Position numbers and translations under genes: made by a program
Notes under the pieces: generated by a model
Seen by the model: only the letters and a program-made list of their open reading frames with translations
Database searches by the model: none
Told to the model about the DNA's origin: nothing
Source of the DNA: Elusimicrobiota bacterium
Lineage (GTDB): Bacteria; Elusimicrobiota; Elusimicrobia; UBA1565; UBA9628
DNA length: 64,000 nucleotides
Direction: 5' to 3'
Assembly: GCA_038059415.1 (NCBI GenBank)
Contig: JBBTJN010000011.1
Span: 7,150 to 71,149, forward strand
Shown here: positions 24,198-40,727 of the stretch, one piece after another
Position numbering within the stretch: the first letter of the stretch is position 1
Layout of the letters: each line of letters begins with the position of its first letter

Positions 24198-24695
24198 TCA
24201 GTCGACCCTAACGCTCACGCCTCGCCTCTTGACCTCCGCGGGCTTGCGCATGGTCAACGTCAGTACGCCTTCCTTGCAGGACGCCTTGACGTCCTCGGTG
24301 TGCAGGCCTTCCGGGAGGACGAAACTCCTCTGGAAGGAACCGTAGGACGACTCGCGCCGCAGCCAGGTCTTGCCCTTCTCCTCCTTCTCGGTCTTCTTCT
24401 CGCCCGAGATGGTCAGGACACCATCTTTGACCTCCACCTTCACGTCCTCTTTCTTCACTCCCGGAAGCGAGAGGTCGAGGATGTACTCCTTCTCCGTCTC
24501 CCGGATGTCCACTCGAGGCATCCACGCAGTCGGCAGCGCGGGTAGACTCGTCCGCATGGGCGAGAATATGTCCTCGAGACCACCGAACGGCAATCGCCGG
24601 AACTCCCGCAGTTGGTTGAGTATCCGGAACGGATCCAACGTCTCGAGTTCGTTCTCGACCTCCCTCTCCACCACCGCCATCTTCTTGTCGACCAT
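24198..24695 (-). CDS. Hsp20/alpha-crystallin small heat-shock protein
   Basis: VDIRETEKEYILDLSLPGVKKEDVKVEVKDGVLTISGEKK...SYGSFQRSFVLPEG is an alpha-crystallin domain. GAGGAGGG lies 7 nt upstream of the ATG at 24695. Confidence 0.85.
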   Translation of the reverse strand: MVDKKMAVVEREVENELETLDPFRILNQLREFRRLPFGGLEDIFSPMRTSLPALPTAWMPRVDIRETEKEYILDLSLPGVKKEDVKVEVKDGVLTISGEKKTEKEEKGKTWLRRESSYGSFQRSFVLPEGLHTEDVKASCKEGVLTLTMRKPAEVKRRGVSVRVD

Positions 24696-24759
24696 GCTAT
24701 TGCCCTCCTCACTTGCTTGATAGTGGTGCAACTAAAACGCCAAGAAATGCGCCGCCGTC

Positions 24760-25749
24760 ATGGCAATATCGTTGCTTCTCTCCAGTCTGGCTCCCTCCAA
24801 TATGACTCCGGCAAAAATAGCGAAGGGCAAGGGCAGGGAACGCTGGTTGGTGACGGCTTGGCCTGGAATGGGCAATGTGGCCGTCACGGCGGTTGTCTAC
24901 CTGCTGTCCAATCTGAGGATGAAGCAAATCGGCGAGTTCGACGCGCGGGACCTTTTCGAACTTGAGGCGGCCGACGTTGAAGGCGGCCTGGTCCACGCCG
25001 TCCATTTGCCGCGCAGCCGCCTATTCCTGGCCGAAGATGTCGCGCCGAACCTCGATATCGTCGCCTTCCTGGGTGAAGCTGAGCCGCCGAAGGGCAAACT
25101 GGCCTTATGCCAGCGCCTCCTGACCATAGCGCGCGGTCTCAATGTGACCCACGTTTGCTGCTTTGCCGCGTGGGCGTCGAATATGATGGCTTCCGACCGT
25201 TCCCGCGTACACGGCATAGCGACCGATGAGGGCGGCCTGAGCGCACTGCGTCGCCGGGACGTCACCATCGTCGACAGCGGTCGAATCTCAGGCCTCAGCG
25301 GGGTGCTGCTCGCGGTTGCCGCCGAACAGGGTCTACCCGGCGTGGGGCTGCTCGGCGAGATGCCCGCGCTGGCGCTCCATCTCCCCTACCCTTCCGCGTC
25401 GGCTGCGGTCCTGCGCATATTCTGCACGATGACCGGCATGACACTCGATCTCGACGAATTGGAACGTTACGGACGCCAAATGCAGGAGCAGTTGTCCGAC
25501 GCTTATCAGCAGGCCATAAAGGCCCTGCGTGACGCCGGTCCCGCGCAGGCGCAAGAGGAAGAGGCCCTGCGTCCAGTTCTCGAGGCGGACGAAGGCTCCT
25601 CCTCGGAGGACGCGCAGCGCGTCGAAAAGTTGTTCCTTGAAGCTGCCAAAGATCGCGCCAAGGCCTTTGAACTCAAGTCTGAACTCGATCGTCTCGGCAT
25701 GTTCCGTCAATATGAAGACCGTTTCCTCGGCCTGTTTAAGGAGCGCTAG
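24760..25749 (+). CDS. PAC2-family (proteasome-assembly-chaperone-like) protein
   Basis: WLVTAWPGMGNVAVTAVVYLLSNL plus a second GLPGVGLLGEMP region resemble PAC2-family proteins. The acidic/helical C-terminal tail is unassigned. The start could also be the ATG at 24802. Confidence 0.5.
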   Translation: MAISLLLSSLAPSNMTPAKIAKGKGRERWLVTAWPGMGNVAVTAVVYLLSNLRMKQIGEFDARDLFELEAADVEGGLVHAVHLPRSRLFLAEDVAPNLDIVAFLGEAEPPKGKLALCQRLLTIARGLNVTHVCCFAAWASNMMASDRSRVHGIATDEGGLSALRRRDVTIVDSGRISGLSGVLLAVAAEQGLPGVGLLGEMPALALHLPYPSASAAVLRIFCTMTGMTLDLDELERYGRQMQEQLSDAYQQAIKALRDAGPAQAQEEEALRPVLEADEGSSSEDAQRVEKLFLEAAKDRAKAFELKSELDRLGMFRQYEDRFLGLFKER

Positions 25750-26948
25750 CCTCCAATTGTCAGGCTTTGTCTGGTCGCGCGCACGAGAGCGGAACCGAGG
25801 CGGGGAATCCTGGAAATCAGGCGCACGGCCGCTTCCCCCCCGGGCGCCCAAAGTAAGGTCGATTGGAGAAGGCGTCCGCGTTTCAGGCGTTTGACGAATC
25901 GACTCTTCCATATCTCGTCCCAACCCTTGCTCAGTGCGGCAATGTCACTGTCGTCCATGCGCCGGGGGTGGCCCCCAATCAACTCGGCAAGATGAATCGC
26001 GGACTCAAGCGCCATCGCCTGGCCATCGCCGCAGAGGGGCGCGATCATGCCCGCGGCGTCTCCAACGAATATCACGCGTCCTAAACTCGTCTCCTTGGGA
26101 GAAAAACCCAGTCCCGCCACGGCATGAAACCCGTCTTCGGCAGGCACCAGCGCCGAGAGGCGACCGCGCAGGCTGGCGCTGCGTGCGCGCATGGCCGAGC
26201 AGACCTCGTCCCAGCTTGGGGCGGCCAATCTCTTGAGAAAGGATTTTTCAACCAGGAGGCAGACATTGACGAGCCCCCCTTCGACGCGGCTCAGGCCGCA
26301 ATAACCATCCTCAAAGAGATGTATCTCCACGCCTCCCGTCAATTCGCGCAGCAGAAGCCGTCCCGTCTCGGTATCGGCCGGACGATGGTGACGTTTGAGT
26401 CCGAGCGCGGAGGGCGAATCCTCCAGGATGGGCCGCCCGAGCTGGGCGTCTAGCGGGGAACGTCTGCCGTAGGCCGCCACGACCAGGCGCGCCTCGACGA
26501 CGGTCCGCCTCCCGTCCTGCCACTCCAGGTTGAGTCGTATACCGCCCGCAATCGCCACGATGCCGATGACTTTAGCCCTTTCGTGAGCCGACGCCCCCGA
26601 ACGGCCGGCGTGACGGAAGAGCGTCTCGTCGAGAGACCAGCGGCTGATCCCCAGCGCCACTCCGTTCAGGTCGAAGACAGCTTCATGGCCGGAAGGGGAG
26701 AAGAATCGCCCCTGAGTGATGCGGGCGGGCCCCAGGGCGAGCACCCCCCCCAGACAGCCGACGCGCTGGAGCATCTGCTGCGATTCCGCGGACAGAAACT
26801 CTCCGCACAGCTTATGACGAGGCAAGCCGTCCTTCTCGAAAAGAAGAACGTCGCGACCGGAGCGCGAGAGCAGCGCCGCCAAAGCGCTTCCCGCGATGCC
26901 GCCGCCGATCACCGCGATCTCGCAGCGCCCGTCTGGACCGGCGCTCAT
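25746..26948 (-). CDS. FAD-dependent oxidoreductase/monooxygenase (geranylgeranyl-reductase-like, SrsC-like position)
   Basis: The ATG at 26948 overlaps the methyltransferase stop (ATGA). Contains VIGGGIAGSALAALLSRSG (GxGxxG) and GDAAGMIAPLCGDGQAMAL. Confidence 0.75.
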   Translation of the reverse strand: MSAGPDGRCEIAVIGGGIAGSALAALLSRSGRDVLLFEKDGLPRHKLCGEFLSAESQQMLQRVGCLGGVLALGPARITQGRFFSPSGHEAVFDLNGVALGISRWSLDETLFRHAGRSGASAHERAKVIGIVAIAGGIRLNLEWQDGRRTVVEARLVVAAYGRRSPLDAQLGRPILEDSPSALGLKRHHRPADTETGRLLLRELTGGVEIHLFEDGYCGLSRVEGGLVNVCLLVEKSFLKRLAAPSWDEVCSAMRARSASLRGRLSALVPAEDGFHAVAGLGFSPKETSLGRVIFVGDAAGMIAPLCGDGQAMALESAIHLAELIGGHPRRMDDSDIAALSKGWDEIWKSRFVKRLKRGRLLQSTLLWAPGGEAAVRLISRIPRLGSALVRATRQSLTIGG

Positions 26949-27658
26949 TTGCGGACAACCATGAGCCAGCGGAAGGCCCATCGCCAGGAGATATCCGCGT
27001 CGGGCAGGCCGGCACGGCGCGCGAGATCCTCAAGCTCGCCGCGGCGAAAGGCGCGAAGGACCGAGAGCGGGGCGTCGTGGCGGATGAGGCGGTTTTTCGA
27101 GAGCGCGGAGGTCAAGCCGTTGATGACGAAGTAGGCCGCCGGGTGCCGGTGGAGGTCGTTGATCACGATCCCCCATCGGCTCAGCTCGAACATCTTCGCC
27201 AGGGCCCGCACCGCCGCCTCATCGGAAAAGTGGTGGAGGAACAACGCCGCGTGGACGACGTCATACTTGCGCGTCGTCGGCAGGTCGAAGAGGTCGGCGA
27301 CGGTGAATTCCAGGACGGATAGGCCGGCATTCGTCCGGCGCGCGCAGGCGACGGCCTCCGGCGATAGATCGATGCCCTGGACGCGCGCGCTCAGGCCCCG
27401 GCGGCTCGCCCGCTCCACGATGCATCGCGCCGTGTCGCCCCCGCCCGAACCCACGTCCAGGACGTCGAACTCAGCGCAGTCCGGCGCCATGAGTTGGGCC
27501 AAGCCATCCAACGTCGCGTCGTGGCCGCCCAAGGTTTTATTGATAAAGGCGAGCTCCCCCAAGGTTTCGGCCAACTCGGCGGGGTCGAGGCCGTGCTCGT
27601 CGATCAGTTCGTGAGCCGTACTGCGCGAGTTGAAGGCGGATAGGGCGGGCGCGCTCAT
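26945..27658 (-). CDS. SAM-dependent methyltransferase (SrsB-like position)
   Basis: The ATG at 27658 overlaps the PKS stop (ATGA). VLDVGSGGGD is SAM motif I. The listed 509-aa ORF is a spurious Arg/Pro/Gly-rich 5' extension. Confidence 0.75.
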   Translation of the reverse strand: MSAPALSAFNSRSTAHELIDEHGLDPAELAETLGELAFINKTLGGHDATLDGLAQLMAPDCAEFDVLDVGSGGGDTARCIVERASRRGLSARVQGIDLSPEAVACARRTNAGLSVLEFTVADLFDLPTTRKYDVVHAALFLHHFSDEAAVRALAKMFELSRWGIVINDLHRHPAAYFVINGLTSALSKNRLIRHDAPLSVLRAFRRGELEDLARRAGLPDADISWRWAFRWLMVVRK

Positions 27659-28785
27659 GGCCGGAAAAGGACGGCTCCCTCCATGGTGAGGCCCGGTCCA
27701 AATCCCATGGCCGTGACGACGCGGCCGGACGCTCGCCGCAGTTCCCGGTCCAGAACGAAGAGGATGGTCGCGCTCGACATGTTGCCGCAGGTTTTTAAGA
27801 CTTCTCGCGAAGCGAGAACCTGCGAGTCCGTCAGGCGCAGGGCGGCCTGAACCTCGTCGACAATTTTGCGGCCCCCGGGGTGGATGGCCCAAGCGCTCTC
27901 CTCGCGCTTGAGACCCGCTTTCTCCAGGAGCGCTGCTACAAAACCCGGGGCGGCGGCCTTGAGCCGCGCGGGCACCTCTCGGTTCAGACGCATCTCGAAG
28001 CCCGAGGGGCCAATGCGCCAGGACATATGGTCGAGGCTGCTGTTTTCGACGCAGCTGTGTGTCGCGACGAGATCTCCCAAGCCCTTTTTGAGGCGCTCCG
28101 GCCGGGCGTAAACGGCAGCGGCGGCGCCGTCGCCGAAGAGGCTGTTGGCCACGACGAAATCGGGAAGGGGCCTCTTCTGAAAATGCAAAGTGCAGAGCTC
28201 GACGCAGACCTGAAGGACCACGGCCTCCGGCTCGGCGGCCAGAATCTGTCCCGCCACCCTCATGCCGTTGAAGCCCGCGTAGCAGCCCATGAAGCCCAGC
28301 ACCGTCCGGTGGACCTGGAGCCCCAGTCCCAGACGGCCGAGCAGAAGGATGTCGGGGCCGGGCGCGAAAAGCCCGGTGCAGGTCGTGAAGACGAGGTGGG
28401 TCACCTCGGCGGGACGGGCGCCCGATTCGCGCAGGGCTTTCCGGCAGGCCGCCTCCGCCAGGTCGACGCTCCATTTTTCATACAGCTTCATGCGAGCCGC
28501 CGTGGTCGGGAAGGGCTCGAGCGCCCAGTTGGCCGGGTAGAAATCAAAATCTTCCGGGGCGTCCTTGGCATAGTCGCCCAGCACGCTGTGCCGCTTCTCG
28601 ATGCCCGAAGAGGCGTATATCCCGTTCAAAAATTCGAGCGTGACCGCGCGCCGCCGGCCCGTAAGCGTGGCCCCAGCCAAAGAATCCATAAACCGTTTCG
28701 CCGCTGGCTGCCCCACCCTATGCGGGGGCAACGCCGTCCCTAAACCGTAGAGTCGGGCATGGCGGCGCATCAACGAGGCGCTCAC
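27655..28785 (-). CDS. Type III polyketide synthase (chalcone/stilbene synthase family)
   Basis: 376 aa with a GTG start. Cys/His/Asn triad context: FTTCTGLFAPG, IHPGGRKIVD, GNMSSATILF. Confidence 0.9.
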   Translation of the reverse strand: MSASLMRRHARLYGLGTALPPHRVGQPAAKRFMDSLAGATLTGRRRAVTLEFLNGIYASSGIEKRHSVLGDYAKDAPEDFDFYPANWALEPFPTTAARMKLYEKWSVDLAEAACRKALRESGARPAEVTHLVFTTCTGLFAPGPDILLLGRLGLGLQVHRTVLGFMGCYAGFNGMRVAGQILAAEPEAVVLQVCVELCTLHFQKRPLPDFVVANSLFGDGAAAAVYARPERLKKGLGDLVATHSCVENSSLDHMSWRIGPSGFEMRLNREVPARLKAAAPGFVAALLEKAGLKREESAWAIHPGGRKIVDEVQAALRLTDSQVLASREVLKTCGNMSSATILFVLDRELRRASGRVVTAMGFGPGLTMEGAVLFRP

Positions 28786-28862: not shown

Positions 28863-29007
28863 TCAATCCGGCACGCCGCCCGAGCGGGCATATTCTCGCC
28901 ACGAAGCCGTAGAGGTCTGCTGGCCCGCCACGGTTGTCGTCGCAACGATCTTCATGGTCTCCCGCGGAGACAGCCCATGCTCGTTGAAAAAATCATATCT
29001 TGCTACC
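28863..29007 (-). pseudogene. Degenerate copy of the ferredoxin 3' segment (copy A), frameshifted
   Basis: The minus strand encodes ETMKIVATTTVAGQQTS, 12/17 identical to ETIKMVPTTTLAGHQTS of the 40275..40727 gene. It is preceded by the same ATGATTT...GGTAGCAAGAT junction as copy B, but 2 extra nt break the frame. Confidence 0.5.
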
Positions 29008-29189
29008 TAGCTCGCATTCCTTGCCGAGCAAGGAAGAGGTGCTGGAGCGGCGGGCCAAGATCAAGCTAGAGACGATGGCTCGGCATTATGCGTACAATAT
29101 GGCACGGACGCCGGAACCGCAAACGAATTCAGGCCAATAAAATTCCCGAAATCGCTGAAGACGTGCAATGTTCACTAAAAGGGTAACAC

Positions 29190-31889
29190 ATGCCTAAACA
29201 CTTCCAAAAACTCGGGACGATCGCCTATCTCATCCTCTTCGTGGGGCTGGGCTTTTTTAACAAGATCGTGGGACTGGCATCTGATTATCTTTGGTTCAAG
29301 GAGATGGACCTCCTCTCGGTCTTCACGGTTACATTCCTCTCCAAATGGGGCCTGGGAATCCTGAGTGCCGTGGCCGCGTGGCTGGCAATATTCATCAACC
29401 TTCGCCTGGCTCAAAGATGGGCCAAACGCGGAGTGATCGTAGTCAGCAAGGATGAGATCGCAACCATCCCCCAGCTACATGAAATCCGAGAAAAGGCCGG
29501 CCCCCTTCTTCTTCTCGGCAGCGCGGCCGCTGCGTTCTTCATCGGTTCATGGTCCGCCTCGCACTGGGACAACATCCTTATGTTCCGCCATGCCGTGCCC
29601 TTCGGTTCGCAGGACCCGATCTTCAACAAGGACATAGGCTTCTATGTATTCTCCCTGCCCTTTTACAGGTTCGTCCATGGTTTCTTTCAAGGGACGGTTC
29701 TCTTGTCGGGCCTTGTCACCCTCGTCCTCTACGTCCTAGAGGGCAAACTGGTTCTGACAGGCAGAGGCCTCAAAACCACTCCCTGGGTCAGAAACCACCT
29801 GGCCTTCCTCGGGGCGCTGATCTGTCTTTTGACGGCCTTCCACTTCCAGCTCAAGATTTATGGTCTCTTGAACATCCAGCGGTCGGTCGCGCCCGGGCCG
29901 GGCTACGCGGACCTGACCGCCTATCTTCCCGCTCTCAAAGGCTTGAGGTTCGTCGCGATAGTCTCCGCCCTGCTCCTCTGGGCCAGCCCGTTCTTCCAAA
30001 GCGCTAAGTTGGTGCTGGCTGGAACGGGCCTATTGGTTATGGGAAGCCTTTTGTCCGGTTTGTTCAGCGGCGTCGTCCAACGCTTCATCGTGGCTCCCAA
30101 CGAAATCGTCAAGGAAACACCGTATATACGATGGGCTATTGAATTCACCCGCAAAGCTTACGGGATAGATCAAATCCAAGAACTCGAGTTTGAACCGACC
30201 GAGAACCTGACGCCGCAGGTCCTCAAGCGCAACGACCTCACCGTCAAGAATATCCGCCTTTGGGATCATGCGCCCCTGCTGACGACCTATGGCCAGCTCC
30301 AGGAGATCCGCACCTACTACGATTTCATGGACGTGGACAATGACCGATACTACGTCAACGGCGAGTACCGCCAGGTGATGCTTTCTCCGCGGGAACTCAA
30401 TCCCGCCGCCCTGCCTAGCCGCATCTGGATCAACGAGAACTTGACCTACACCCACGGCTACGGCCTGACTCTGGGCCCCGTCAACCGCATATCGCCCGAG
30501 GGCCTACCTGAGTTCTTCATCAAGGACATCCCTCCCCAAGCCTCGACGAACCTCGAGGTCACGCGCCCAGAAATCTACTATGGCGAGGCCAAGGGAAACT
30601 ACGTCATCGTCAACACCGAGTCCAAGGAGTTCGACTACCCTTCCGGAGACGAAAACATCTACACCAACTACCAAGGGACAGGAGGGGTGTCCATCCATGG
30701 GTTCTTGAAGAAGCTCTTATTCGCCCTGCGCTTCAAGGAGCTCAAAATCCTTCTGTCCGGCGATATGACGCCGGCAAGTAAAATCCTATACCACAGAAAC
30801 ATCCAGGAGCGGCTGTCCAAGGCCGCACCCTTCCTGCGCTACGACCAGGACGCCTACCTCGTCCTCTCCGACAAGGGGAGACTTTTCTGGATCGTGGACG
30901 CCTACACGGCCACCGACAACTATCCCTATTCCGAAAGGATCAGGGGTGTGGGCAATTATATCCGGAACTCGGTCAAGGCCGTCGTGGACGCCTACAATGG
31001 GGACATTTCCTTCTATGTCACCGAGGACAGCGATCCAATCATTCAAACCTACGCAAATATTTTCCCAAATACCTTCAAGCCCATATCCGAGATGCCCCAG
31101 GACTTGAGGAGCCACATCCGCTATCCCCAGGACCTGTTCTCCATCCAGGCCCACATCTATGCCACCTACCACATGACGGACCCGCAAGTCTTCTACAACA
31201 AGGAGGACCTCTGGAAGATTCCAGAAAAGAGCGTCGGCAACCAGGTTCAAAGGATGCCTCCCTACTACACCATTATGAAACTGGCCTCCGTGGGCAAGCA
31301 AGAAGAGTTCATCCTGATGGCGCCCTTTACCCCGGCCCGCAAGGAGAACATGATCGCCTGGATGGCCGCTCGGTGCGACGCTCCCAACTACGGGAAGCTC
31401 CTGGTCTATAACTTCCCCAAACAAAAAATGGTCTACGGACCACAACAGATCGAATCGCGCATTGACCAGGACGCAGAAATATCCAAGCAGCTCAGCCTCT
31501 GGAATCAGGGCGGCTCCAAGGTCATACGAGGCAGCCTGCTGGTGATCCCGGTGGAAAGCTCGCTCCTCTATGTCCAGCCACTGTACCTCGAGGCGACGGG
31601 TGGCGGACTGCCCGAGCTCAAACGTGTCATCGTGGTCTACGGCAACGCCATCGCCATGGAAGAGAATCTCGAAAAGTCCCTCAACAAAATATTCGACGGG
31701 AGGACGCAGGGAGCCCCGGTCGATGCTTCGCCAGGCTCGCGCGATCCCGGTATCAAGAGCCTGATCCGGCAAGCCCAGGAACGCTTCAGTAAAGCGCAGT
31801 CTCGTCTAAAGCAAGGCGATTTGGCAGGGTACGGGCAAGAGATGAAAGAGGTCGAGCGGTTGATCCAAAAAATGGCGGAGGTACCATAG
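29190..31889 (+). CDS. UPF0182 family membrane protein
   Basis: 899 aa with an N-terminal multi-TM region and a large soluble part. YTHGYG, RYPQDLFSIQAHIYATYHMTDPQVFYNKEDLW and LYVQPLYL are typical of UPF0182. AAGGG lies 8 nt before the ATG. Confidence 0.85.
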   Translation: MPKHFQKLGTIAYLILFVGLGFFNKIVGLASDYLWFKEMDLLSVFTVTFLSKWGLGILSAVAAWLAIFINLRLAQRWAKRGVIVVSKDEIATIPQLHEIREKAGPLLLLGSAAAAFFIGSWSASHWDNILMFRHAVPFGSQDPIFNKDIGFYVFSLPFYRFVHGFFQGTVLLSGLVTLVLYVLEGKLVLTGRGLKTTPWVRNHLAFLGALICLLTAFHFQLKIYGLLNIQRSVAPGPGYADLTAYLPALKGLRFVAIVSALLLWASPFFQSAKLVLAGTGLLVMGSLLSGLFSGVVQRFIVAPNEIVKETPYIRWAIEFTRKAYGIDQIQELEFEPTENLTPQVLKRNDLTVKNIRLWDHAPLLTTYGQLQEIRTYYDFMDVDNDRYYVNGEYRQVMLSPRELNPAALPSRIWINENLTYTHGYGLTLGPVNRISPEGLPEFFIKDIPPQASTNLEVTRPEIYYGEAKGNYVIVNTESKEFDYPSGDENIYTNYQGTGGVSIHGFLKKLLFALRFKELKILLSGDMTPASKILYHRNIQERLSKAAPFLRYDQDAYLVLSDKGRLFWIVDAYTATDNYPYSERIRGVGNYIRNSVKAVVDAYNGDISFYVTEDSDPIIQTYANIFPNTFKPISEMPQDLRSHIRYPQDLFSIQAHIYATYHMTDPQVFYNKEDLWKIPEKSVGNQVQRMPPYYTIMKLASVGKQEEFILMAPFTPARKENMIAWMAARCDAPNYGKLLVYNFPKQKMVYGPQQIESRIDQDAEISKQLSLWNQGGSKVIRGSLLVIPVESSLLYVQPLYLEATGGGLPELKRVIVVYGNAIAMEENLEKSLNKIFDGRTQGAPVDASPGSRDPGIKSLIRQAQERFSKAQSRLKQGDLAGYGQEMKEVERLIQKMAEVP

Positions 31890-31953
31890 AGTCATGATCC
31901 CCGACACATATAGACGTTCAGATAGCAGATCCCGGACCCCAAAGGAGTCAGGC

Positions 31954-32082
31954 ATGCCAAAACACGCCAGGCTCATGACTGTCTTCGGTGTCATTTTTAT
32001 CCTTTGCGGGTTTCTCGGGTGGGCGTCCACCGGCTTTGAGGCGCGCGCTAAGACCGACGGGGACATCTCTCGTCATCTTTAA
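31954..32082 (+). CDS. Possible 42-aa single-TM peptide
   Basis: AAAGGAG lies 6 nt upstream of the ATG at 31954. Product MPKHARLMTVFGVIFILCGFLGW.... No recognisable homology. Confidence 0.3.
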   Translation: MPKHARLMTVFGVIFILCGFLGWASTGFEARAKTDGDISRHL

Positions 32083-32247
32083 ACTCGCCGGCGAGTCCTC
32101 GGCACTTGTCGATGAGATCGCCCTCGTCCTCGAGAAACCGAGCGAGGCCTGGATCTAGGCTGAAAATACGAGGCTGAGGCAGGTGAGTTCGCAGTCCGCA
32201 ATCACGTGGCTCGGCCAGCAGACCAACGCGATCATTTCAGGCGCGGC

Positions 32248-32496
32248 TTACTTCGGGCTCATCAGCCCCGGAACGACGGGGTTGTTCTTACCGAAGAGTT
32301 CTAGCACGACAGGATCGGTCTTCGGGGACTTATTGACGAAGCCACGGATCTCCTCGGGGACGAGCGCGGGATTCAGATAGACGGCGTGATCGTGGTCGAG
32401 CTGGCTGTCGAGCGAGGTCTGGTCGCCGGCGACCGTCGCGGTCGGAACCATCTTGATGGTCTCCCACGGACAGTCCATTATCGTCGAGGAAATCAT
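32248..32496 (-). CDS. Truncated ferredoxin paralogue (copy B): C-terminal tail only, no Fe-S cluster motifs
   Basis: 82-aa intact ORF MISSTIMDCPWETIKMVPTATVAGDQTSLDSQ.... Of 25 aligned residues, 22 are identical to the 40275..40727 ferredoxin. Nt 32440-32476 are identical to 40470-40506. Confidence 0.5.
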   Translation of the reverse strand: MISSTIMDCPWETIKMVPTATVAGDQTSLDSQLDHDHAVYLNPALVPEEIRGFVNKSPKTDPVVLELFGKNNPVVPGLMSPK

Positions 32497-32653
32497 ATCT
32501 TGCTACCCAATCTGCCACCCATCCAAGTGTCGCAGTCCCAATCACAGGCAACTTCTATCATCTTGCCCCTCGGCTAAACCCATAAAATCAACCCTTAACC
32601 GTATCAACGAACGCCTGTTTCATAACATCCGCGAGGGAAGCAAAGCAATTTTC

Positions 32654-32682
32654 GGGACAGGGACGCCAGAAATTGGCATAAT
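32654..32682 (+). promoter_or_regulatory. Candidate promoter of the phoB-like gene (leaderless geometry)
   Basis: GGGACA (32654-59), a 17-nt spacer, then TGgCATAAT (32674-82). The ATG at 32690 is 7 nt downstream and no SD is present. Confidence 0.35.
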
Positions 32683-32689
32683 AAAATAT

Positions 32690-33373
32690 ATGGCGGGCGA
32701 GAAGATCCTGATTGTGGAGGATGAGAAGCATCTGGTGAAGATCCTCAAATATAACCTTGAAAAAGAGGATTATCGGGTTTCGATCGCCGGGGATGGGGAG
32801 GCCGGGCTGGCACTGTGTCGTCATGAGAAACCCGATCTGGTAATCCTCGACGTCATGCTGCCCAAGCTGGACGGTTTTGAGTTCTGCAAAGCCGTCAGGC
32901 AATCCGCGAAAACCCCGATCCTAATGTTGACGGCAAAGACCGGCGAGATCGACAAGGTGCTGGGATTGGAGCTTGGGGCCGACGACTATGTAACCAAGCC
33001 GTTCAGCGTGCGGGAAGTATTGGCCCGCATCAAGGCCATCCTGAGACGCGTCGGTGATAAGGAATCCGACAAACCAGTGATTCTCATCGGCGGCCTTGAG
33101 GTCGATCTGGAAAGATACGTGGTTCGGGTGGAAGGCGCCCCGGTTTCTCTGAGCCCGAAGGAATTCGACTTCTTGAAGTGCCTCCTGCAAGCTGACGGTC
33201 GAGCGATGACACGGGACCAGCTCCTCGAAAAGGTCTGGGGCTACGACAAATCGATGGAGATCGACACCACCACCATCGACCAACACATCGCCCGCCTCCG
33301 GGGCAAACTGGGGAGCGAGGCCAGTCGGATCGTCACTGTGAAAAACGTCGGTTACCGCATTAATATGGATTGA
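32690..33373 (+). CDS. phoB: OmpR/PhoB-family response regulator
   Basis: Receiver domain (KILIVEDE...DLVILDVMLPKLDG) plus a winged-helix domain (LSPKEFDFLKCLL...VKNVGYR). Lies upstream of a PhoR-like kinase and pstSCAB-phoU. Confidence 0.85.
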   Translation: MAGEKILIVEDEKHLVKILKYNLEKEDYRVSIAGDGEAGLALCRHEKPDLVILDVMLPKLDGFEFCKAVRQSAKTPILMLTAKTGEIDKVLGLELGADDYVTKPFSVREVLARIKAILRRVGDKESDKPVILIGGLEVDLERYVVRVEGAPVSLSPKEFDFLKCLLQADGRAMTRDQLLEKVWGYDKSMEIDTTTIDQHIARLRGKLGSEASRIVTVKNVGYRINMD

Positions 33374-35166
33374 TCGTGGCTCACTGGGTCTTTCGCAAGT
33401 TCTCCCGCAAACTCTCCCTGATGGTCGGCGTGATCCTTGTGTGCGCCATGGCGCTGACCGACCTATTGCTGACCCGTGCACTGCGGCGACAATTCATCGA
33501 TGAAGTCGCATCGAACCTCTTGGTCCAGGCCGACCTCATTGAGATGCAGTTGCGGTCAAAAACCTTCTCAAAGAAAGCCGGCGGCGAACTCCAAAGCATG
33601 GCCAAACAGTATGACCGGACGTGCGACTGCCGAGTCACCTTCGTCAGCAAGGACGGGGCGGTGCTCGCGGATTCCAGCCTAACCACTGACGAGATCATCC
33701 GCATGGAAAACCATAAAGGAAGGCCGGAAATCAGCACGGCGCTTGCCGGTAGCCCGGGACATTCCATCCGGTACAGCGAAACCATCCGGCAGGACATGCT
33801 CTATGCTGCAACCCCGCTTCGTCTTAACGGCACGGTGCATGGCGTGGTACGCGTGGCCATGTCCCTGGCTCAAGTCGAGCAGAAAATCGCAGGCGTACGC
33901 AAGACCATCGCCACAATCACGATATTCATGATTCTTGCTGCGATACTGGCCTCCCTTTGGATGTCGCGTTCAATCAGCCAGCCCCTGGCAGAGATGTCCC
34001 GTATCGCCGAAAAACTGGCGCAAGGGGATTACAGCGCACGGGTCCGGCCCCGTTTGCCCGATGAGCACGGACAATTAGGGGCCACATTGAACCTCCTCGC
34101 GCAGAAGGTTCAATCAGCTATTCATGCCCTCTCCCAGGAAAAAGCCCATCTTTCCGCCATTCTCTCCAACATGACCGAAGCGGTGATCGCCGTGGACGAA
34201 ACCGGACATGTGCTTGCGGTCAACCCCGCCCTGACGCGTTTATTCGGCATCCAGCCTCAGGAGTGCGTCGGCAAGCCTTTCCTGGAAGTCATCCGCAACA
34301 ACAGGCTTAGCGCCCTGTTGAACATTGTCATCAAGGATTCCACGCGCCAGCAGGATGAAGTGAAGGTCTTGGCTCCAGAAGAAGCCGTCTTTGAAGCTCA
34401 GGCCGTTCCCCTGCTCATGGAAGAACGCTGCATCGGCGCTCTCCTGGTTTTGCATGACATAACGCGCCTGCGCCAACTCGAACAGATCCGCAAGGATTTC
34501 GTGGCCAACGTTTCCCACGAGATCAAGACGCCGCTGGCCTCCATCAAAGCCTTCGCGGAAACTTTACGCACCGGGGCCATCGACGATCCCGCGAACCGCA
34601 AGGAATTCGTTGAGATCATCGAGAAGGACGCAGACAGGATGATGCGGCTTGTAGACGACCTGCTTGAGCTTTCCTCTATCGAATCGGGCCGCAGAGCTCC
34701 CAATTTTGAGCCTGTCGCTCTGGCGGAATGCGCGATGGCAGTGGCCGCCAGCCTTGCGCCTCTTGCCGACCGTAAGCAGGTGCGTGTCGACATTCGGATT
34801 CCGGACAATCTCCCACTTCTCCGCGCGGACAATGGCCAATTGCGGCAGGTTCTCACCAATCTACTGGACAATGCCATTAAGTTCAACAAGGACGAAGGCA
34901 GCGTAACTGTTAAGGCATCGGCCAACCAGCGCATCGTCACCGTCGTAGTCCAGGATACCGGCTCGGGAATCACCGCCGAGAATCTGCCGCGCATATTCGA
35001 GCGCTTCTACCGCGTAGACAAAGCTCGTTCCTGCGAACTCGGTGGCACCGGCTTGGGCTTGGCCATCGTCAAACACATTATTGATGCCCATGGCGGCTCC
35101 GTCGGCGTCGAGAGCAAACCAGGCCAAGGCTCCACATTCCGCTTCACTCTGCCCACCGCCGCATAA
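33370..35166 (+). CDS. phoR: PhoR-like sensor histidine kinase (TM-HAMP-PAS-HisKA-HATPase)
   Basis: The TTG at 33370 overlaps the regulator stop. H-box FVANVSHEIKTPL. N, G1 and G2 boxes (NLLDNAIKF, DTGSGI, GGTGLGLAIV). Confidence 0.85.
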   Translation: MIVAHWVFRKFSRKLSLMVGVILVCAMALTDLLLTRALRRQFIDEVASNLLVQADLIEMQLRSKTFSKKAGGELQSMAKQYDRTCDCRVTFVSKDGAVLADSSLTTDEIIRMENHKGRPEISTALAGSPGHSIRYSETIRQDMLYAATPLRLNGTVHGVVRVAMSLAQVEQKIAGVRKTIATITIFMILAAILASLWMSRSISQPLAEMSRIAEKLAQGDYSARVRPRLPDEHGQLGATLNLLAQKVQSAIHALSQEKAHLSAILSNMTEAVIAVDETGHVLAVNPALTRLFGIQPQECVGKPFLEVIRNNRLSALLNIVIKDSTRQQDEVKVLAPEEAVFEAQAVPLLMEERCIGALLVLHDITRLRQLEQIRKDFVANVSHEIKTPLASIKAFAETLRTGAIDDPANRKEFVEIIEKDADRMMRLVDDLLELSSIESGRRAPNFEPVALAECAMAVAASLAPLADRKQVRVDIRIPDNLPLLRADNGQLRQVLTNLLDNAIKFNKDEGSVTVKASANQRIVTVVVQDTGSGITAENLPRIFERFYRVDKARSCELGGTGLGLAIVKHIIDAHGGSVGVESKPGQGSTFRFTLPTAA

Positions 35167-35177
35167 GCGCCACACCT

Positions 35178-35199
35178 CCGTCATTCAAAAGTCATTCGG
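35178..35199 (+). promoter_or_regulatory. Pho-box-like direct repeat upstream of pstS
   Basis: In CCGTCATTCAAAAGTCATTCGG, GTCATTC occurs at 35180 and 35191, an 11-bp period with an A-rich spacer. This resembles the E. coli CTGTCAT-N4-CTGTCAT Pho box. It lies 75-95 nt upstream of the pstS ATG. Confidence 0.4.
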
Positions 35200-35271
35200 G
35201 ATAGAGCCCGCTTCTATGGAGCGTGCTAATCGCAGCCGATATACTGAAAGTGGAAAAATGGGAAGAAATAG

Positions 35272-36141
35272 ATGAACACAAGAGCAATCAAGGCGGCTGC
35301 CATCCTGCTCAGCGCAGGTTTCATGACCGGCACGGCCTACGCCGCCGGCAAGACAGTGACGATCAAGGGCTCCGACACGATGGTCATCTTGGGCCAACGC
35401 TGGGCGGAAGAATACATGAAGGCGCATCCGGGCGTGATCATCCAGGTCACAGGCGGAGGCTCGGGGACCGGTATCGCCGCCCTCATCAACGGCTCGACCG
35501 ATATTGCCGAGGCTTCGCGCCCCATGAAGCCGGAGGAAAAGGCTTCTGTAAAAAAGAAGCACGGCAAGGACGTCGAGGAGATTCCTGTGGCCCAGGATAG
35601 TCTGGCCATTTATGTCCATCAGTCTAACTCCCTCAAGACCATCACCCTAGCCCAGGCCAAGGCCATCTATACAGGGAAGATGACGAAGTGGGACGAACTC
35701 GGGGTCAAGCTCGGCCAGATCATAGCCTACGGCCGCGAGAACAACTCCGGGACCTATGCCTACTTCAAGGAGCATGTACTCGGTAACCAGGACTTTGCCC
35801 CTGAGATACTTAGCTTACCCGGCACGGCCGCAGTCATCAACGCTATCAGCAAGGACAAGATCGCCATCGGCTACGGCGGCATCGCCTACGGCAAGGGCAT
35901 CCGGGAGCTCAGCGTCAGCAAGGACGAGAAGAGTCCGGCCATCACCCCGACCATGGCAAACGTGCTCAACGGCTCTTATCCCCTTTCCCGTGCCTTGTAC
36001 TTCTACACGGCAGGCAAACCCGAGGGCGAGGAGAAGCTCTTCATCGACTGGGTCCTCGGACCAGAGGGACAGAAGATATGCGACCAAGTGGGATACTATC
36101 CCCTCAAGCAGGCTAAGAAACCCGCAAAGAAAAAGTCATGA
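35272..36141 (+). CDS. pstS: Phosphate ABC transporter substrate-binding protein
   Basis: Signal peptide followed by GSDTMV...VTGGGSGTGIAAL...GTYAYF motifs typical of PstS. First gene of the pst operon. Confidence 0.9.
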   Translation: MNTRAIKAAAILLSAGFMTGTAYAAGKTVTIKGSDTMVILGQRWAEEYMKAHPGVIIQVTGGGSGTGIAALINGSTDIAEASRPMKPEEKASVKKKHGKDVEEIPVAQDSLAIYVHQSNSLKTITLAQAKAIYTGKMTKWDELGVKLGQIIAYGRENNSGTYAYFKEHVLGNQDFAPEILSLPGTAAVINAISKDKIAIGYGGIAYGKGIRELSVSKDEKSPAITPTMANVLNGSYPLSRALYFYTAGKPEGEEKLFIDWVLGPEGQKICDQVGYYPLKQAKKPAKKKS

Positions 36142-37145
36142 AAAGAGCGGAAGGCGTGCCTGTTGAAGCGACCGGACCAGTGGGGCCGACGTTGGCCCTG
36201 CCGGTTTCCGTCCGGGGCCGACCACGCAGACGCATTACGGAAGCAGTTATAGAAGGGATCATCCGCGCGAGCGCTTATTCCGCCATCATCGGACTTTTCC
36301 TCATCTTCGTGTTCATCGGAAAAGAAGCGCTGCCCATCTTCACCTCCTCGGAGGTGCGCAAGGAAGCCAACATCTCCAAACTGTTCCTGCCCCAGGATCA
36401 GGCCCATCCTTACTCCTGGCAGCCGGTTTCCGAGGTCCCGAAGTACTCCATACTGCCTCTTTTCATCGGGACTTTGAAGGTGACCTTAGTCGCCATCCTG
36501 TTCGCGATTCCGCTGGCCCTGGGCGCAGCCCTGTTCACATCGGAGTTTTCCCCGGACTGGCTCAAGGAATTCATCAAGCCGATCATTGAAATTCTTGCAG
36601 GAATCCCATCCGTGGTGCTTGGATTCTTTGCGCTCATGGTCATGGCGAGCTATGTACAGGATGCCTTTGGCATCGTCTATCGTCTCAACGCCATCAACGC
36701 CGGGATAGCCCTGGGCTTGGCGGTAATACCAATCGTCTACACGGTCGCCGATGACGCCCTGACAGCCGTCCCTAAGAGTTATCGGGAAGCATCCATCGCT
36801 ATGGGCGCTTCCTCGTGGCAGACCGCCTGGCTGGTCGTGTTCCCAGCTGCCCTTCCCGGCGTTCTGGCCGCCTGCGTGTTGGGCTTCGGGCGGGCCATCG
36901 GGGAGACGATGATCGTCCTTATGGCGTCGGGGAATGCTCCGATTATGTCCTTGGCACTAGCCAAACCGGTACGCAGCCTGTCTGCCACCATCGCGGCCGA
37001 GTTGGGTGAAGTCGTGATCGGCAGCGCACATTACCACGTCCTCTTCTTCATCGGCACTTGCCTCTTTATTTTCACGTTCGTCCTGAATATGTTCGCACAC
37101 TGGTTTATCACCCGGCTACAGAAGAGGATATTGGGGACGACATGA
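36138..37145 (+). CDS. pstC: Phosphate ABC transporter permease PstC
   Basis: Polytopic ORF with an EAS-loop-like YREASIAMGASSWQT. Its start overlaps the pstS stop. Confidence 0.9.
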   Translation: MKRAEGVPVEATGPVGPTLALPVSVRGRPRRRITEAVIEGIIRASAYSAIIGLFLIFVFIGKEALPIFTSSEVRKEANISKLFLPQDQAHPYSWQPVSEVPKYSILPLFIGTLKVTLVAILFAIPLALGAALFTSEFSPDWLKEFIKPIIEILAGIPSVVLGFFALMVMASYVQDAFGIVYRLNAINAGIALGLAVIPIVYTVADDALTAVPKSYREASIAMGASSWQTAWLVVFPAALPGVLAACVLGFGRAIGETMIVLMASGNAPIMSLALAKPVRSLSATIAAELGEVVIGSAHYHVLFFIGTCLFIFTFVLNMFAHWFITRLQKRILGTT

Positions 37146-38032
37146 TCGGGAAACTCTTCGTCGCATTGACTGCGTTTTGCTGCCTGATAATCGTGGTACT
37201 GGTGGCTGCCATCCTCGGGGACATCGCCTATTTTGGGTGGGAACGCCTGAGCCTGCAATTCTTGATAGCCGCGCCGCAGCAAGGCATGGCCGAAGGCGGT
37301 ATATTTCCGGCAATCTTCGGGACGTTCTTCCTGGTTCTCTTGATGACCATCGCGGTCATCCCACTGGGTGTCATGACCGCAATTTATCTTCATGAATACG
37401 CTCCAAAGAAGTCCGCCATGGTCCGCTGGATCAGGCTGGCCATAGAGAATCTCGCCGGTGTGCCGGCCATTGTCTTCGGGCTCTTCGGGCTGGGTTTCTT
37501 TATTGAATTCGTCGGCAGGGGCATGGACCGCATCTTCCTGAACGACCAGCTGACTTTTGGCCAGCCTGCCATCATTTGGGCGGCGATGACCCTGGCCCTT
37601 CTAACCCTCCCGACTGTCGTCGTGGCCACGGAAGAGGCGCTCCGGGCCATACCGGCCTCCCACAGAGAGGTGGCATATTCCCTGGGAGCCACACGCCTGC
37701 AGATGGTGCGCAGGGTCGTCCTGCCGCAATCCATCGGAGGCATCCTGACGGGCGGCATCTTAGCCATCAGCCGCGGCGCTGGAGAAGTTGCGCCGATCCT
37801 CTTTACCGGCGCGGCCTATTTCTTGCCATATCTGCCCAAGAAGCTCAACGACCAGTTCATGGAGCTCGGCTACCACATCTACGTGCTGGCCACCCAGTCG
37901 CCGGATGTCGAGAAGACCAAGCCCATCCTCTATTCGACCGTTTTCGTTCTGTTGGCGCTGACTTTCATGTTGAATTTCACGGCCATCTGGGTCAGGTCCA
38001 GAATCCGTCGCAAGTTGAGGATGGCAAAATGA
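37142..38032 (+). CDS. pstA: Phosphate ABC transporter permease PstA
   Basis: The ATG at 37142 overlaps the pstC stop (ATGA). HREVAYSLGATRLQM permease motif. The listed 37058 start is an upstream extension. Confidence 0.9.
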   Translation: MIGKLFVALTAFCCLIIVVLVAAILGDIAYFGWERLSLQFLIAAPQQGMAEGGIFPAIFGTFFLVLLMTIAVIPLGVMTAIYLHEYAPKKSAMVRWIRLAIENLAGVPAIVFGLFGLGFFIEFVGRGMDRIFLNDQLTFGQPAIIWAAMTLALLTLPTVVVATEEALRAIPASHREVAYSLGATRLQMVRRVVLPQSIGGILTGGILAISRGAGEVAPILFTGAAYFLPYLPKKLNDQFMELGYHIYVLATQSPDVEKTKPILYSTVFVLLALTFMLNFTAIWVRSRIRRKLRMAK

Positions 38033-38786
38033 AGGAGCCAAACAGGCTGCAAATCGAGCATCTCAGTATCCGAGCGGGTGAACAGGACATCCTGCGTTCT
38101 GTTTCTCTGCAAGTGAGCCTGGGTGAGATACTCGGCATCATCGGCCCGGCTGGAAGCGGGAAGACGACGTTCCTCCGGGCGCTTAACAGACTCATCGACC
38201 TCGACGAGGGGCTGGAAGTTTCCGGCGACATCCAGCTCAACGGAATATCCATCCTGGACAAGAGGGCCGACGAGGTCGACATCCGCAGAAAGATCGGCCT
38301 GGTCTTTTCGGTCCCAACGCCCCTCCCAATGTCCATCTTTGACAATCTTGCCTTCGGGCCAAGACTCAACGGCGTAATGAAGATCAGCGAACTGAAGCGA
38401 AGGATGGAGGCCAGCCTCAAATCCGCATATCTTTGGGACGAGGTCAAAGATCGGCTAAGCGAACCCGCCGTCAACCTCTCCGGCGGCCAACTACAACGAC
38501 TTTGCCTGGCCAGAACCCTCATGATGGAGCCCGCGGTACTGCTTCTGGACGAGCCCTGCTCCGGCCTGGACCCGATTTCCACCGCACAGATTGAGGAAGC
38601 CCTAAAAGTCCTCAAGAACGACATGGCCATCATCCTGGTCACCAACAACGTCAAGCAGGCCTCGCGGGTGGCCGACAAAACCGCTTTCCTGCTACTGGGA
38701 GAGTTGGTAGAGTTCGCCCCAACCCAAGTGATTTTCACCACACCCAAAGACAAGAGGACGGAGGATTACGTCACGGGGAGGTTCGG

Positions 38787-38790
<4 letters not shown>
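38029..38790 (+). CDS. pstB: PstB-like ATPase, divergent copy (Q-loop and H-loop substituted, signature intact)
   Basis: ATG at 38029 (ATGA overlap). Walker A GPAGSGKT, signature LSGGQLQR and Walker B LLLDEP are present. However it has VFSVPTP in place of VFQ.PNP and VTNN in place of VTHN. Confidence 0.85.
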
Positions 38791-39554
<764 letters not shown>

Positions 39555-39566
39555 GGGGGAGGATTT

Positions 39567-40247
39567 ATGCGCAGACAGTTTGAAGAAGCCGAAGGCGAAC
39601 TGAAGAATAAAATATTGTCGATGGGAAGTCTGGCCGAAGAGATGATCCATTCGGCCATCCAGGGACTTGCCGAAAGGAAGCGGGAGCCTTTGCAGAAGGT
39701 GACCACAAACGAGGACGAGGTCAACCGGCTCCACATCGACATAGACAACCGCTGCGTCAACCTGATAGCGTTACACCAACCCGCCGCGACCGACCTGCGG
39801 TTCATAATCGCGGCGATCAAGATCAACTCCGACCTTGAACGCATCGGCGACCAAGCAGTCAACATCTCGCAGACAGCCGCCCTATTGCTAGATCACCCCC
39901 AGCTCGAGAAGAAGTTACTGAATATCCCGCGGATGACGGAATTGGCGCAAAGCATGTTCAAGGATAGCCTGGATTCATTCGTCAAGAAAGACGTCGCGCT
40001 CGCACGAACAGTCCTGGCTAGAGATGCCGAAGAAGACCAGTTAAAGAGCGAGGCGTTCAACGAACTGATGCAGCTGATGCAATCAGACGCATCCACGATT
40101 CAACGGGCTTTGGGACTCATTCTCATCGCCCGGAACTTGGAGCGGATCGCCGATCACGCCACCAACATTGCGGAGGACGTGATTTTCATGACCCTCGGCA
40201 AGGACATCCGCCATCACGCGGAAGGGGTCAAAGATGCCAACTCTTGA
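39567..40247 (+). CDS. phoU: Phosphate signalling regulator PhoU
   Basis: 226 aa in two PhoU repeats, each with an ...LERIGDQAVNI / LERIADHATNIAED motif. Follows pstB. Confidence 0.9.
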   Translation: MRRQFEEAEGELKNKILSMGSLAEEMIHSAIQGLAERKREPLQKVTTNEDEVNRLHIDIDNRCVNLIALHQPAATDLRFIIAAIKINSDLERIGDQAVNISQTAALLLDHPQLEKKLLNIPRMTELAQSMFKDSLDSFVKKDVALARTVLARDAEEDQLKSEAFNELMQLMQSDASTIQRALGLILIARNLERIADHATNIAEDVIFMTLGKDIRHHAEGVKDANS

Positions 40248-40274
40248 TAAGAAAAGGCGTTTCGTGAGAAGCCA

Positions 40275-40727
40275 CTAGGGAAATCTTATGGAAGACGGCT
40301 TAGCGATCACGGCGGCCGGGGCCGCCACCGTCGGAGGAGCGACAGGCTTTTCCCCTCTGAGGACGAAGGGCGTCTTGACCTCTTCCGGAAGCAACTCGAG
40401 CTTCTCGAACACTGCGTGCTCGCGGTTGGGCTGGCTGTCCAAAGAGGTCTGGTGTCCGGCCAAGGTCGTGGTCGGAACCATCTTGATGGTCTCCCACGGA
40501 CAGTCCTTGGCGCAGAGCTGGCAGCCGATGCAGATGTCGTAGTTCACGAACACGCCGGTGTTCGACGGGTCCGTGCCGAACTTCTCGATGCACTGAGGCA
40601 CGGGGCACACGGCGACGCAGACTTCGCAGCCGGTGCAGGCGGAGAGATTGATAAGAGCCTTGATCTTGGCTTTCGACGCGCCCTTGACGAGGGCAGCCCG
40701 GCGCGCATCATTCTGGAGGGAGGGCAT
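40275..40727 (-). CDS. 2x[4Fe-4S] ferredoxin with a ~70-aa C-terminal extension (full-length copy C)
   Basis: CTGCEVCVAVCP and CIGCQLCAKDCP are both CxxCxxCxxxCP motifs. The start shares one nt with the bcp stop (TAATG). Confidence 0.85.
   Translation of the reverse strand: MPSLQNDARRAALVKGASKAKIKALINLSACTGCEVCVAVCPVPQCIEKFGTDPSNTGVFVNYDICIGCQLCAKDCPWETIKMVPTTTLAGHQTSLDSQPNREHAVFEKLELLPEEVKTPFVLRGEKPVAPPTVAAPAAVIAKPSSIRFP

Follow-up and report, generated by a model that had tools for sequence, protein, structure and literature searches.

Organization of the ferredoxin locus

The DNA analysed here is a 64,000-nt stretch of an Elusimicrobiota bacterium (hereafter the window) in which an intact ferredoxin gene and two displaced copies of its 3' part bracket two gene cassettes, one with a complete Pho regulon and one with a UPF0182 gene (Table 1). 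It was compared with approximately 50 related loci (L numbers), 17 of them from species-representative genomes, oriented on the ferredoxin gene. The results point, at a probability of roughly 80%, to the 3' third of the ferredoxin gene being the bacterial attachment site (attB) of a family of Elusimicrobiota tyrosine-integrase elements, and to the window containing two old insertions of this family that lack an integrase.

Table 1. Features of the ferredoxin locus, in window coordinates.
Feature	Position	Strand	Basis or description
Intact ferredoxin gene	40275-40727	minus	150 aa, 2x[4Fe-4S]; Pfam Fer4 families
Ferredoxin 5' part, codons 1-75, both Fe-S motifs to the Asp preceding Cys-Pro-Trp	40503..40727	minus	predicted native part of attL-type junction
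Core (TGTCCGTGGGAG...) and type I ferredoxin tail	40275..40502	minus	informative sites; 3' part of intact gene
37-nt perfect direct repeat, left copy	40470..40506		putative attachment-site (att) identity block; = 32440-32476 exactly
pho cassette cargo	32690..40247	plus	Pfam; gene calls on identical contig L018
phoB	32690-33373	plus	Pfam
phoR	33376-35166	plus	Pfam
pstS	35272-36141	plus	Pfam
pstC	36138-37145	plus	Pfam
pstA	37142-38032	plus	Pfam
pstB, first copy	38029-38790	plus	Pfam
pstB, second copy	38787-39554	plus	Pfam
phoU	39567-40247	plus	Pfam
J(B), P-arm-type junction	32477..32537	minus	nhmmer E = 2.4e-20 vs J profile
37-nt perfect direct repeat, right copy	32440..32476		first 37 nt of copy B
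Copy B, displaced type II tail, reading frame intact	32248..32476	minus	95% aa, 87% nt to L009 tail
UPF0182 cassette cargo	29190..32082	plus	UPF0182 29190-31889 (PF03699, E = 2e-293); 42-aa open reading frame 31954-32082
J(A), putatively older P-arm-type junction	28973..29038	minus	nhmmer E = 3.3e-16
Copy A, putatively oldest displaced tail remnant	28863..28972	minus	1-nt insertion in core
PKS block	22582..28785		CBS protein, DnaJ pseudogene, Hsp20, PAC2, FAD monooxygenase, methyltransferase, type III polyketide synthase (Pfam, synteny)
RRM-domain protein gene, conserved right flank	21947..22432	minus	Pfam RRM_1; adjoins ferredoxin stop in four relatives

Gene calling and Pfam searches recovered the genes named in an earlier note on this DNA, namely the intact ferredoxin gene, UPF0182, phoB and phoR, pstSCA, two pstB genes, phoU, a bcp gene of the AhpC/TSA type, an MGDG-synthase-type glycosyltransferase gene and a type III polyketide synthase (PKS) gene. 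The array of cassettes is preceded by genes for a Rieske protein, cytochrome b and cytochrome c, the glycosyltransferase and bcp. The two pstB genes of the pho cassette encode tandem ATPases (38029-39554, plus strand), and the phoU stop lies 27 nt from the ferredoxin stop. Copy B was confirmed as an intact open reading frame (ORF) of 82 aa (32248-32496, minus strand) whose residues 8-82 align to ferredoxin residues 75-127 and beyond. Copy A, described in the note as frameshifted, does carry a 1-nt insertion, and its homology to the ferredoxin tail spans only 28972->28911, followed by unrelated sequence until an in-frame stop at 28863. The direct repeat flanking the pho cassette is perfect over 37 nt, with a chance expectation of 0 in 100 shuffles, and that between copy B and copy A is imperfect.

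The two cassettes also stand out in composition. Lower G+C content had been noted from five hand-counted 60-nt lines (31, 29, 26, 45 and 43), all of which were exact, and the G+C content of 29008-40274 was found to be 0.563 compared to 0.630 in the window outside 22456-40274. Cassette genes had a mean G+C content of 0.560 versus 0.629 for other genes (Mann-Whitney p = 9e-7) and a G+C content at third codon positions (GC3) of 0.71 versus 0.78 (p = 0.008). The tetranucleotide distance to the rest of the window was 0.032 for the pho cassette (G+C 0.566) and 0.036 for the UPF0182 cassette (G+C 0.560), while equal-sized background chunks of the window, used as the null, reached maxima of 0.017 and 0.026, respectively. 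Composition is not uniform across the window, and both cassettes are outliers of a foreign type. The PKS block (22.6-28.8 kb) is not, as its tetranucleotide distance of 0.014 is background-like (null mean 0.013).

Contigs from the NCBI metagenome-assembled genome (MAG) GCA_964360845.1, from two Hainich H52 assemblies and from several others matched the window at 99.8-100%, and every junction was covered at least twice by independent contigs, showing that the joins are real. The Hainich contigs are groundwater assemblies. Individual contigs span cytochrome c to UPF0182 (L019), the RRM gene to copy B (L047) and J(A) to the RRM gene (L045, L048). Contigs of this population often break at the repeats, as would be expected for repeats of 96 nt with ~85% identity. 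One contig (L020, sample ERZ1300416) matches the window to the copy B stop and then ends in 18 unmatched nt (AGTCCACCCCGGCTTCGC, 9931-9948), which is either a strain variant at a cassette boundary or contig-end noise.

Occupancy of the site in related genomes

Upstream of the ferredoxin gene, the order of genes for a Rieske protein, cytochrome b, cytochrome c, a 198-aa protein, a glycosyltransferase and bcp is conserved, and the upstream genes of the window are nearest to those of L009, L008 and L012 (78-89% aa). Downstream, the site is empty in four relatives (L003, L004, L015 and L016), in which an RRM gene homologous to that of the window lies 25-100 nt past the ferredoxin stop, with permease and YceI genes coming next as they do in the window. 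Compared to these genomes the window has an extra 17.8 kb (22456-40274) between the ferredoxin and RRM genes. Judged from this synteny, it was the RRM gene that ancestrally lay next to the ferredoxin gene on the downstream side.

The earlier note had proposed that the ferredoxin gene would run directly into the PKS operon if the insert were removed. The empty-site relatives have the RRM gene there instead, and since this gene is the ancestral neighbour, the PKS/Hsp20/CBS block is itself placed inside the variable interval, from which it is missing in relatives. The proposed adjacency may still hold for the immediate ancestor, given that the PKS block is compositionally native. No ferredoxin fragment or J was detected beside the RRM gene at 22456-22582 with tblastn, blastn or the nhmmer J profile. 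The block also contains a DnaJ-like pseudogene (23143-24141, minus strand) distributed over three frames, with the J domain at 23590-24141 and DnaJ_C at 23340-23738 and 23143-23391; the split recurs in the independent assemblies L048 and L049.

The arrangement of the window is limited to its own population (L018-L020, L041-L052) and no relative has these genes in the interval, which answers the question of shared synteny raised in the note. The UPF0182 cassette was sought in the closest relative, L009, and ruled out there: L009 has a copy-B-type tail and ~80 nt in common with the window, after which the shared sequence ends and different genes follow. The best 50%-cluster representatives for UPF0182 were only 48-61% identical and came from Elusimicrobia (partial), Deltaproteobacteria and Armatimonadota, a resolution too coarse for a donor to be identified. 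The exact PhoU, UPF0182 and RRM proteins had no other genomic context in the assemblies searched and were found in the same population only. In L004 a pst-phoU operon (11161-14142; PhoU 61% identical) is located ~7 kb past the ferredoxin gene, after RRM, YceI and thioredoxin-like genes. The window has no pst genes at the corresponding position, and the pho cassette may have replaced a lost native pst-phoU copy.

A conserved junction precedes displaced ferredoxin tails

Both displaced copies start at the Cys-Pro-Trp codons, and each is preceded by the same non-ferredoxin junction, termed J, in agreement with the earlier observation that the two break off at one codon and continue into a common flank. 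The 17-mer AATCATATCTTGCTACC shared by the two junctions occurs in the window only at 28991-29007 and 32491-32507 (chance expectation 0). On either strand of the 64-kb window, GTAGCAA is likewise found only in J(A) and J(B), once in each.

A protein search with copy B returned about 20 short ORFs that have no Fer4 domain and consist of a ferredoxin tail behind a few junction-derived residues, many displaced tails being intact ORFs. Such tails could be functional small proteins, but selection that acted before displacement would leave intact frames just as selection after it would. The contexts of these short ORFs, together with a metagenome scan using a J+core pattern, gave 14 non-redundant sites at which J precedes a displaced ferredoxin tail beside unrelated cargo. 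J is a conserved motif of ~52 nt, made up of two GTAGCAA repeats and a CTCGACGAG palindrome, followed by the core TGYCCNTGGGA. All 14 sites break at the identical nucleotide and have in common the consensus cGGTAGCAAaaac.GTAGCAAAc(~9 nt)gTCCTCGACGAGGAT.GAC|TGTCCGTGGGA, and the sequence between the motifs and farther upstream of J is variable. J(B) is composed of a degenerate GTGGCAG repeat, an intact GGTAGCAAG repeat and TCCTCGACGA, with GGAC at the break. J(A) retains a single intact GGTAGCAAG repeat and its palindrome has decayed (TTTTCAACGAGC).

The neighbours of J sites are mostly toxin-antitoxin and defence genes. They include a ParE toxin and a caspase-like Peptidase_C14 (L025), TerB, BrxC/BrxD, a helicase, RhuM and an Xre/RES pair (L022), AbiEi/AbiEii (L031) and a TPR protein (L030). 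An array in L021/L028 packs three J+tail sites into 4 kb, and its cassettes carry Peptidase_C14 and AAA_14/DUF4143; the last tail of this array is internally deleted and lies directly before the RRM gene. This was the densest such array among those seen (L021:7600-11700, also in L028), with cassettes of 1-2 kb that have no integrase and an additional solo J at 8607-8660. Approximately 45 nt upstream of the common motif (window 32520-32570; L021:9995-10040) are shared between J(B) and one J of L021 (L021b), reading MIEVACDWDCD... and MEVACDCDW..., although the adjacent cargo is wholly different. This suggests that J subfamilies with longer arms may exist.

In L001, L036 and L038, GTAGCAA or GTAACCA repeats are present both in J, corresponding to a P arm, and between the tail and int, corresponding to a P' arm. 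GTAGCAA is a predicted arm-binding site of the integrase. No P' arm motif followed the tails of the window, where only single AATGTTG matches at chance level were found. The J+core pattern had no match among IMG/VR viral contigs (0 hits), and the window contained no tRNA, tmRNA or Rfam element as an alternative attachment site. Folding of the junctions in the manner of attC was tested and not supported: on neither strand did J(B) with its core fold better than shuffled sequence (z = -0.5 and -0.7), and J(A) formed only local hairpins.

Mosaic structure of the ferredoxin gene

The bcp gene and the 5' part of the ferredoxin gene are nearest to L009, L008 and L012 (79-91% nt). A sliding comparison and a site-by-site scan delimited the native, L009-like stretch (type II) to bcp plus ferredoxin nt 1-169, with informative sites at nt 76-169 being of the native lineage kind. 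From nt 208/237 on every informative site is of another kind (type I), and this part has 77-92% identity to L001/L002/L003 versus 33-82% to the native group. The whole ferredoxin is nearest to that of L001 and L002 (89-90%), while the flanking genes of these two are far more distant from the window (41-63% for glycosyltransferase and cytochrome c). As the switch from type II to type I falls at nt 170-237, an interval that contains the core and the break at nt 222, the intact ferredoxin gene is a chimera with a native 5' part and a foreign tail. The type I tail would be the contribution of the incoming pho element.

The tail of copy B has 95% aa and 87% nt identity to the intact ferredoxin tail of L009, the closest relative by flanking genes. 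Copy B is thus most readily read as the tail that completed the ferredoxin gene before the pho DNA came. Across the ferredoxin family (P0002-P0120; L001-L016) the C-terminal 75 residues occur in two versions with unrelated ends, one Pro/Ala-rich and one ending ...NPVVPGLMSPK. Mosaics of the two are found as well, and both versions are present in empty-site genomes.

Integrase-bearing elements at the same site

Occupants of the site that carry an integrase were found in relatives. In L001 two CCGTAACCA repeats come after the ferredoxin tail, and next, on the opposite strand, a gene for a 343-aa tyrosine integrase (PF00589 4e-21; phrog_1 3e-56), beyond which lie an excisionase-like helix-turn-helix protein (phrog_66) and a degenerate J+core. 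An integrase of this type (96% aa) is located behind a displaced tail in L030. In L036 (Elusimicrobia MAG GCA_016205025.1, 1-16200) two int-xis units in tandem follow a ferredoxin gene of 68% identity. The distal unit resembles a prophage and encodes a CI/LexA-type repressor, a Sak4-like protein, RusA, HNH and a replication initiator; beside its int gene lie a displaced tail and GTAGCAA repeats, three in one orientation and one inverted. The ferredoxin of L038 is short and more divergent (46% identity) and ends in ...CPWDAISMIPRSSA. After it come a P' arm in which GTAGCAA occurs four times, a MazE/PIN pair and an integrase gene (51% identity), and J lies at the far end. One core, one arm repeat and a set of related integrases thus recur over wide divergence.

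For the integrase family 89 members could be detected, most of them carrying the label Elusimicrobia. A profile built from them gave no hit at E <= 1 in the six-frame translation of the window, in line with the earlier statement that no integrase is present. Repeats of the AACGTTGCC type also follow the tail in L012 and L022, which were considered as further integrase carriers; L012 runs on into a multihaem cytochrome gene, and the sequence of L022 ends too early for an integrase to be seen or rejected.

Proposed mechanism

The note had interpreted the layout as tandem accretion onto the 3' end of a single target gene. The conserved J, the integrase-bearing occupants, the empty sites and the chimeric ferredoxin gene all uphold this idea. 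In the mechanism that we propose, crossover would take place in the region (G)AC TGY CCN TGG GA, encoding Asp-Cys-Pro-Trp-Asp/Glu of the second Fe-S motif. The attachment site of the element (attP) would begin with J as the P arm (two GTAGCAA repeats 12 nt apart, ~14 nt, the CTCGACGAG palindrome and 6 nt), continue with the core and with the final ~225 nt of a ferredoxin gene, carried by the element as a copy of its own, and end with a P' arm of AATGTTGCC-type and GTAGCAA repeats, followed by int and xis. As in lambda/P4-style systems, integration would rebuild the ferredoxin ORF using the tail of the element, and the previous tail would be displaced to the far end of the element, where it would now lie behind J. 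Repeated integration would stack elements, with the newest adjoining the gene.

The window would then record at least two events. The newer would have brought the type I tail, phoU-pstBBACS-phoRB and J(B), leaving the 37-nt repeat at its ends, and the older UPF0182 with J(A), leaving the decayed copy A before the PKS block. The pho element is taken as newer because it is nearest to the gene, has the perfect repeat and has the better preserved J, and the UPF0182 element as older because J(A) is decayed and copy A is frameshifted and truncated. Both elements would have lost int, xis, the P' arm and part of the arm repeats, decay accounting for the missing integrase. Since an integrase gene lies at this site in L001, L030, L036 and L038 but not in the window, the window would contain remnants rather than complete members. 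Given that int, xis and P' arm are missing and that the phoU stop is so close to the ferredoxin stop, both elements are most likely immobilised cargo remnants, that is, a domesticated Pho regulon and UPF0182 gene. The anatomy of the repeats, a J conserved beside unrelated cargo, the occupied and empty sites of relatives, the chimeric ferredoxin gene and the foreign composition of both cassettes were observed directly. The exact crossover point, the order of events and the loss of the integrase, rather than its original absence, are what we infer from this comparison.

Several observations weigh against this mechanism. An integrase, an excisionase and P' arm repeats are all missing from the window, where only 27 nt separate the phoU and ferredoxin stops, and integrase action in this genome is therefore deduced from relatives. 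Both copies of the 37-nt block are type I, which would not result from a single reciprocal crossover if a type I attP met an attB that was purely type II; the recipient tail would therefore have been mosaic already, or gene conversion would have followed. L001 and L030 have int-xis-J in common (92% nt) but different tails, and the match to L009 stops ~80 nt past its copy-B-type tail. The left boundary of the UPF0182 cassette is ambiguous, falling at 32476 or ~32170. J is missing from the far, RRM-proximal end of the PKS block, and this block is native-like in composition. Finally, neither an excised circle nor an empty-site variant of this population was present among the sequences searched. 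The mosaic tails, the tail mismatch between L001 and L030 and the case of L009 together indicate that homologous recombination between tails is frequent, and such recombination would blur the simple picture of one tail per cassette. It may also have been the route by which these cassettes entered this genome.

Alternative explanations

The strongest competitor takes homologous recombination as the whole explanation. J+tail would have arisen once in an ancestor, and the cassettes would have been imported from other strains with no integrase acting in this lineage, by one crossover on the left, within the ferredoxin gene or upstream of it, and another on the right, between a donor J+tail and the recipient tail. 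Mosaic tails are indeed common; copy B begins as ETIKM-type and continues as type II, and P0005 is the reverse mosaic. In copy B the right-hand switch is offset from the break by ~37 nt, into the tail, and the broken link between tail and integrase in L001 and L030, the short stretch shared with L009 and the window's own lack of an integrase fit as well. This account leaves unexplained that J is conserved motif by motif, at fixed spacing, across distant lineages down to 46% ferredoxin identity (L038). Conservation of this kind between variable stretches argues for functional constraint rather than neutral drift. Integrase genes are moreover flanked by the same GTAGCAA repeats, the left switch of the intact gene falls in nt 170-237 with the core included, and the break nucleotide is identical in every fragment. 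We therefore regard recombination by itself as rather unlikely. The two explanations are not exclusive, as these particular cassettes may have arrived by recombination at a family of sites that is still integrase-made.

Somewhat less probable is that cassettes bounded by J+core are alive, being excised and reinserted in trans by an integrase of the family encoded at another place in the genome or by a co-resident element. Intact J+tail sites do enclose tiny integrase-less cassettes in L021/L028 (1.1-2.4 kb) and in L025 (1.7 kb), the pho cassette is flanked by a perfect repeat, and contigs of the population break at the repeats, L020 ending in unmatched nucleotides after copy B. However, assemblers are expected to break contigs at 85%-identical repeats, the sites in the window are decayed, each J retaining a single intact GTAGCAA and neither tail being followed by a P' arm, J(B) has no attC-like fold, and in none of the assemblies did the exact PhoU or UPF0182 protein turn up in a different context. 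The wider idea that the ferredoxin tail site is an integron-like platform in Elusimicrobiota, on which operons would circulate between strains with each move rewriting the C-terminal half of ferredoxin, is likewise rather unlikely.

That the ferredoxin 3' end was duplicated locally and stably in the distant past, with ordinary chromosomal genes in between, is very improbable. The cargo is of a housekeeping type and the window has no mobility genes, but the arrangement is confined to one population, the interval genes occur in no relative while the ferredoxin gene abuts the RRM gene in four, J lies beside unrelated cargo elsewhere and the two cassettes are compositional outliers. Chimeric assembly across the repeated ferredoxin segment, conceivable for a MAG whose contigs tend to stop at repeats, has a negligible chance of being right as at least two independent assemblies span every junction at near-complete identity.

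Relation to known systems and significance

The system in the window would belong, as remnants, to the known integrase-made islands that restore their target gene. In islands of the P4 type that occupy tRNA genes, the intact target is followed by int, cargo and a direct repeat derived from the displaced 3' end, with arm-type repeats on both sides of the core, and decay yields islands without an integrase. The layout of target, cargo and displaced 3' end is alike here, and the arm repeats and the decay would be as well. The target, however, is protein-coding, so that an element must carry a translatable tail, and this tail is long and itself recombines. Xer-dependent elements such as IMEX (integrative mobile elements exploiting Xer) and pdif modules are integrase-less modules between short recombination sites that can stack in tandem. 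They resemble the cassettes of the window in both respects, but the sites here are not dif-like and relatives have a dedicated integrase and excisionase at the same site. With integrons the window shares an array of recombinase-less cassettes that lie between repeated sites, an array that would grow at one end. It differs in that no intI lies beside the array, the sites consist of an arm-type motif and a 225-nt gene fragment rather than a folded attC, and a cassette can comprise as many as 8 genes that have regulation of their own; the window has no tyrosine recombinase of the searched family and J(B) shows no attC-like folding.

Prophage e14 (and phage 21) in Escherichia coli icd are tyrosine-integrase elements inside the 3' part of a protein gene (PMC6379469). 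The gene stays intact as e14 replaces the icd 3' end, and a 163-bp pseudo-3' fragment is left at the far end (PMC6379469). The same target-restoring logic is seen here, with an intact ferredoxin gene and a displaced tail at the distal end. In contrast to e14, ~225 nt or 75 codons are replaced, equal to half of the protein, and this half exists in two strongly divergent versions. The target is moreover an Fe-S motif of a ferredoxin in Elusimicrobiota, elements are stacked and the integrase would have been lost in the window. In the tycheposons of Prochlorococcus, successive integrations at one site push older elements deeper into an island (bioRxiv 10.1101/2020.12.28.424599). Such islands contain scattered partial tRNAs and degenerate elements, and their nutrient-uptake cargo includes phosphate assimilation (bioRxiv 10.1101/2020.12.28.424599). 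Stacking, partial target copies and phosphate cargo are common to both systems, but tycheposons use tRNA/tmRNA sites and their own replication and integration modules, whereas the site here is protein-coding, the window holds neither a tRNA nor a tmRNA and the integrases form an Elusimicrobiota clade.

Literature searches found no description of this ferredoxin attachment site. The site, together with its integrase/att family, would be a previously undescribed one for an uncultivated phylum, distinguished by a protein-coding target of which half is exchanged per event and by a complete Pho regulon as fixed cargo. The ~52-nt arm motif could be used as a marker that delimits mobile DNA in Elusimicrobiota MAGs. 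For the host, half of a ferredoxin would have been replaced repeatedly by element-borne variants, resulting in mosaic C-termini across the ferredoxin family. If the sites did act as an integron-like platform, whole operons, the complete Pho regulon for example, would circulate between strains. The proposed history of the pho cassette would mean that a full set of two-component regulator, high-affinity phosphate transporter and PhoU can arrive as one block by way of such a site and then become fixed, looking like any other chromosomal genes, which would parallel, in a groundwater lineage, the nutrient-uptake cargo of tycheposons in marine cyanobacteria.

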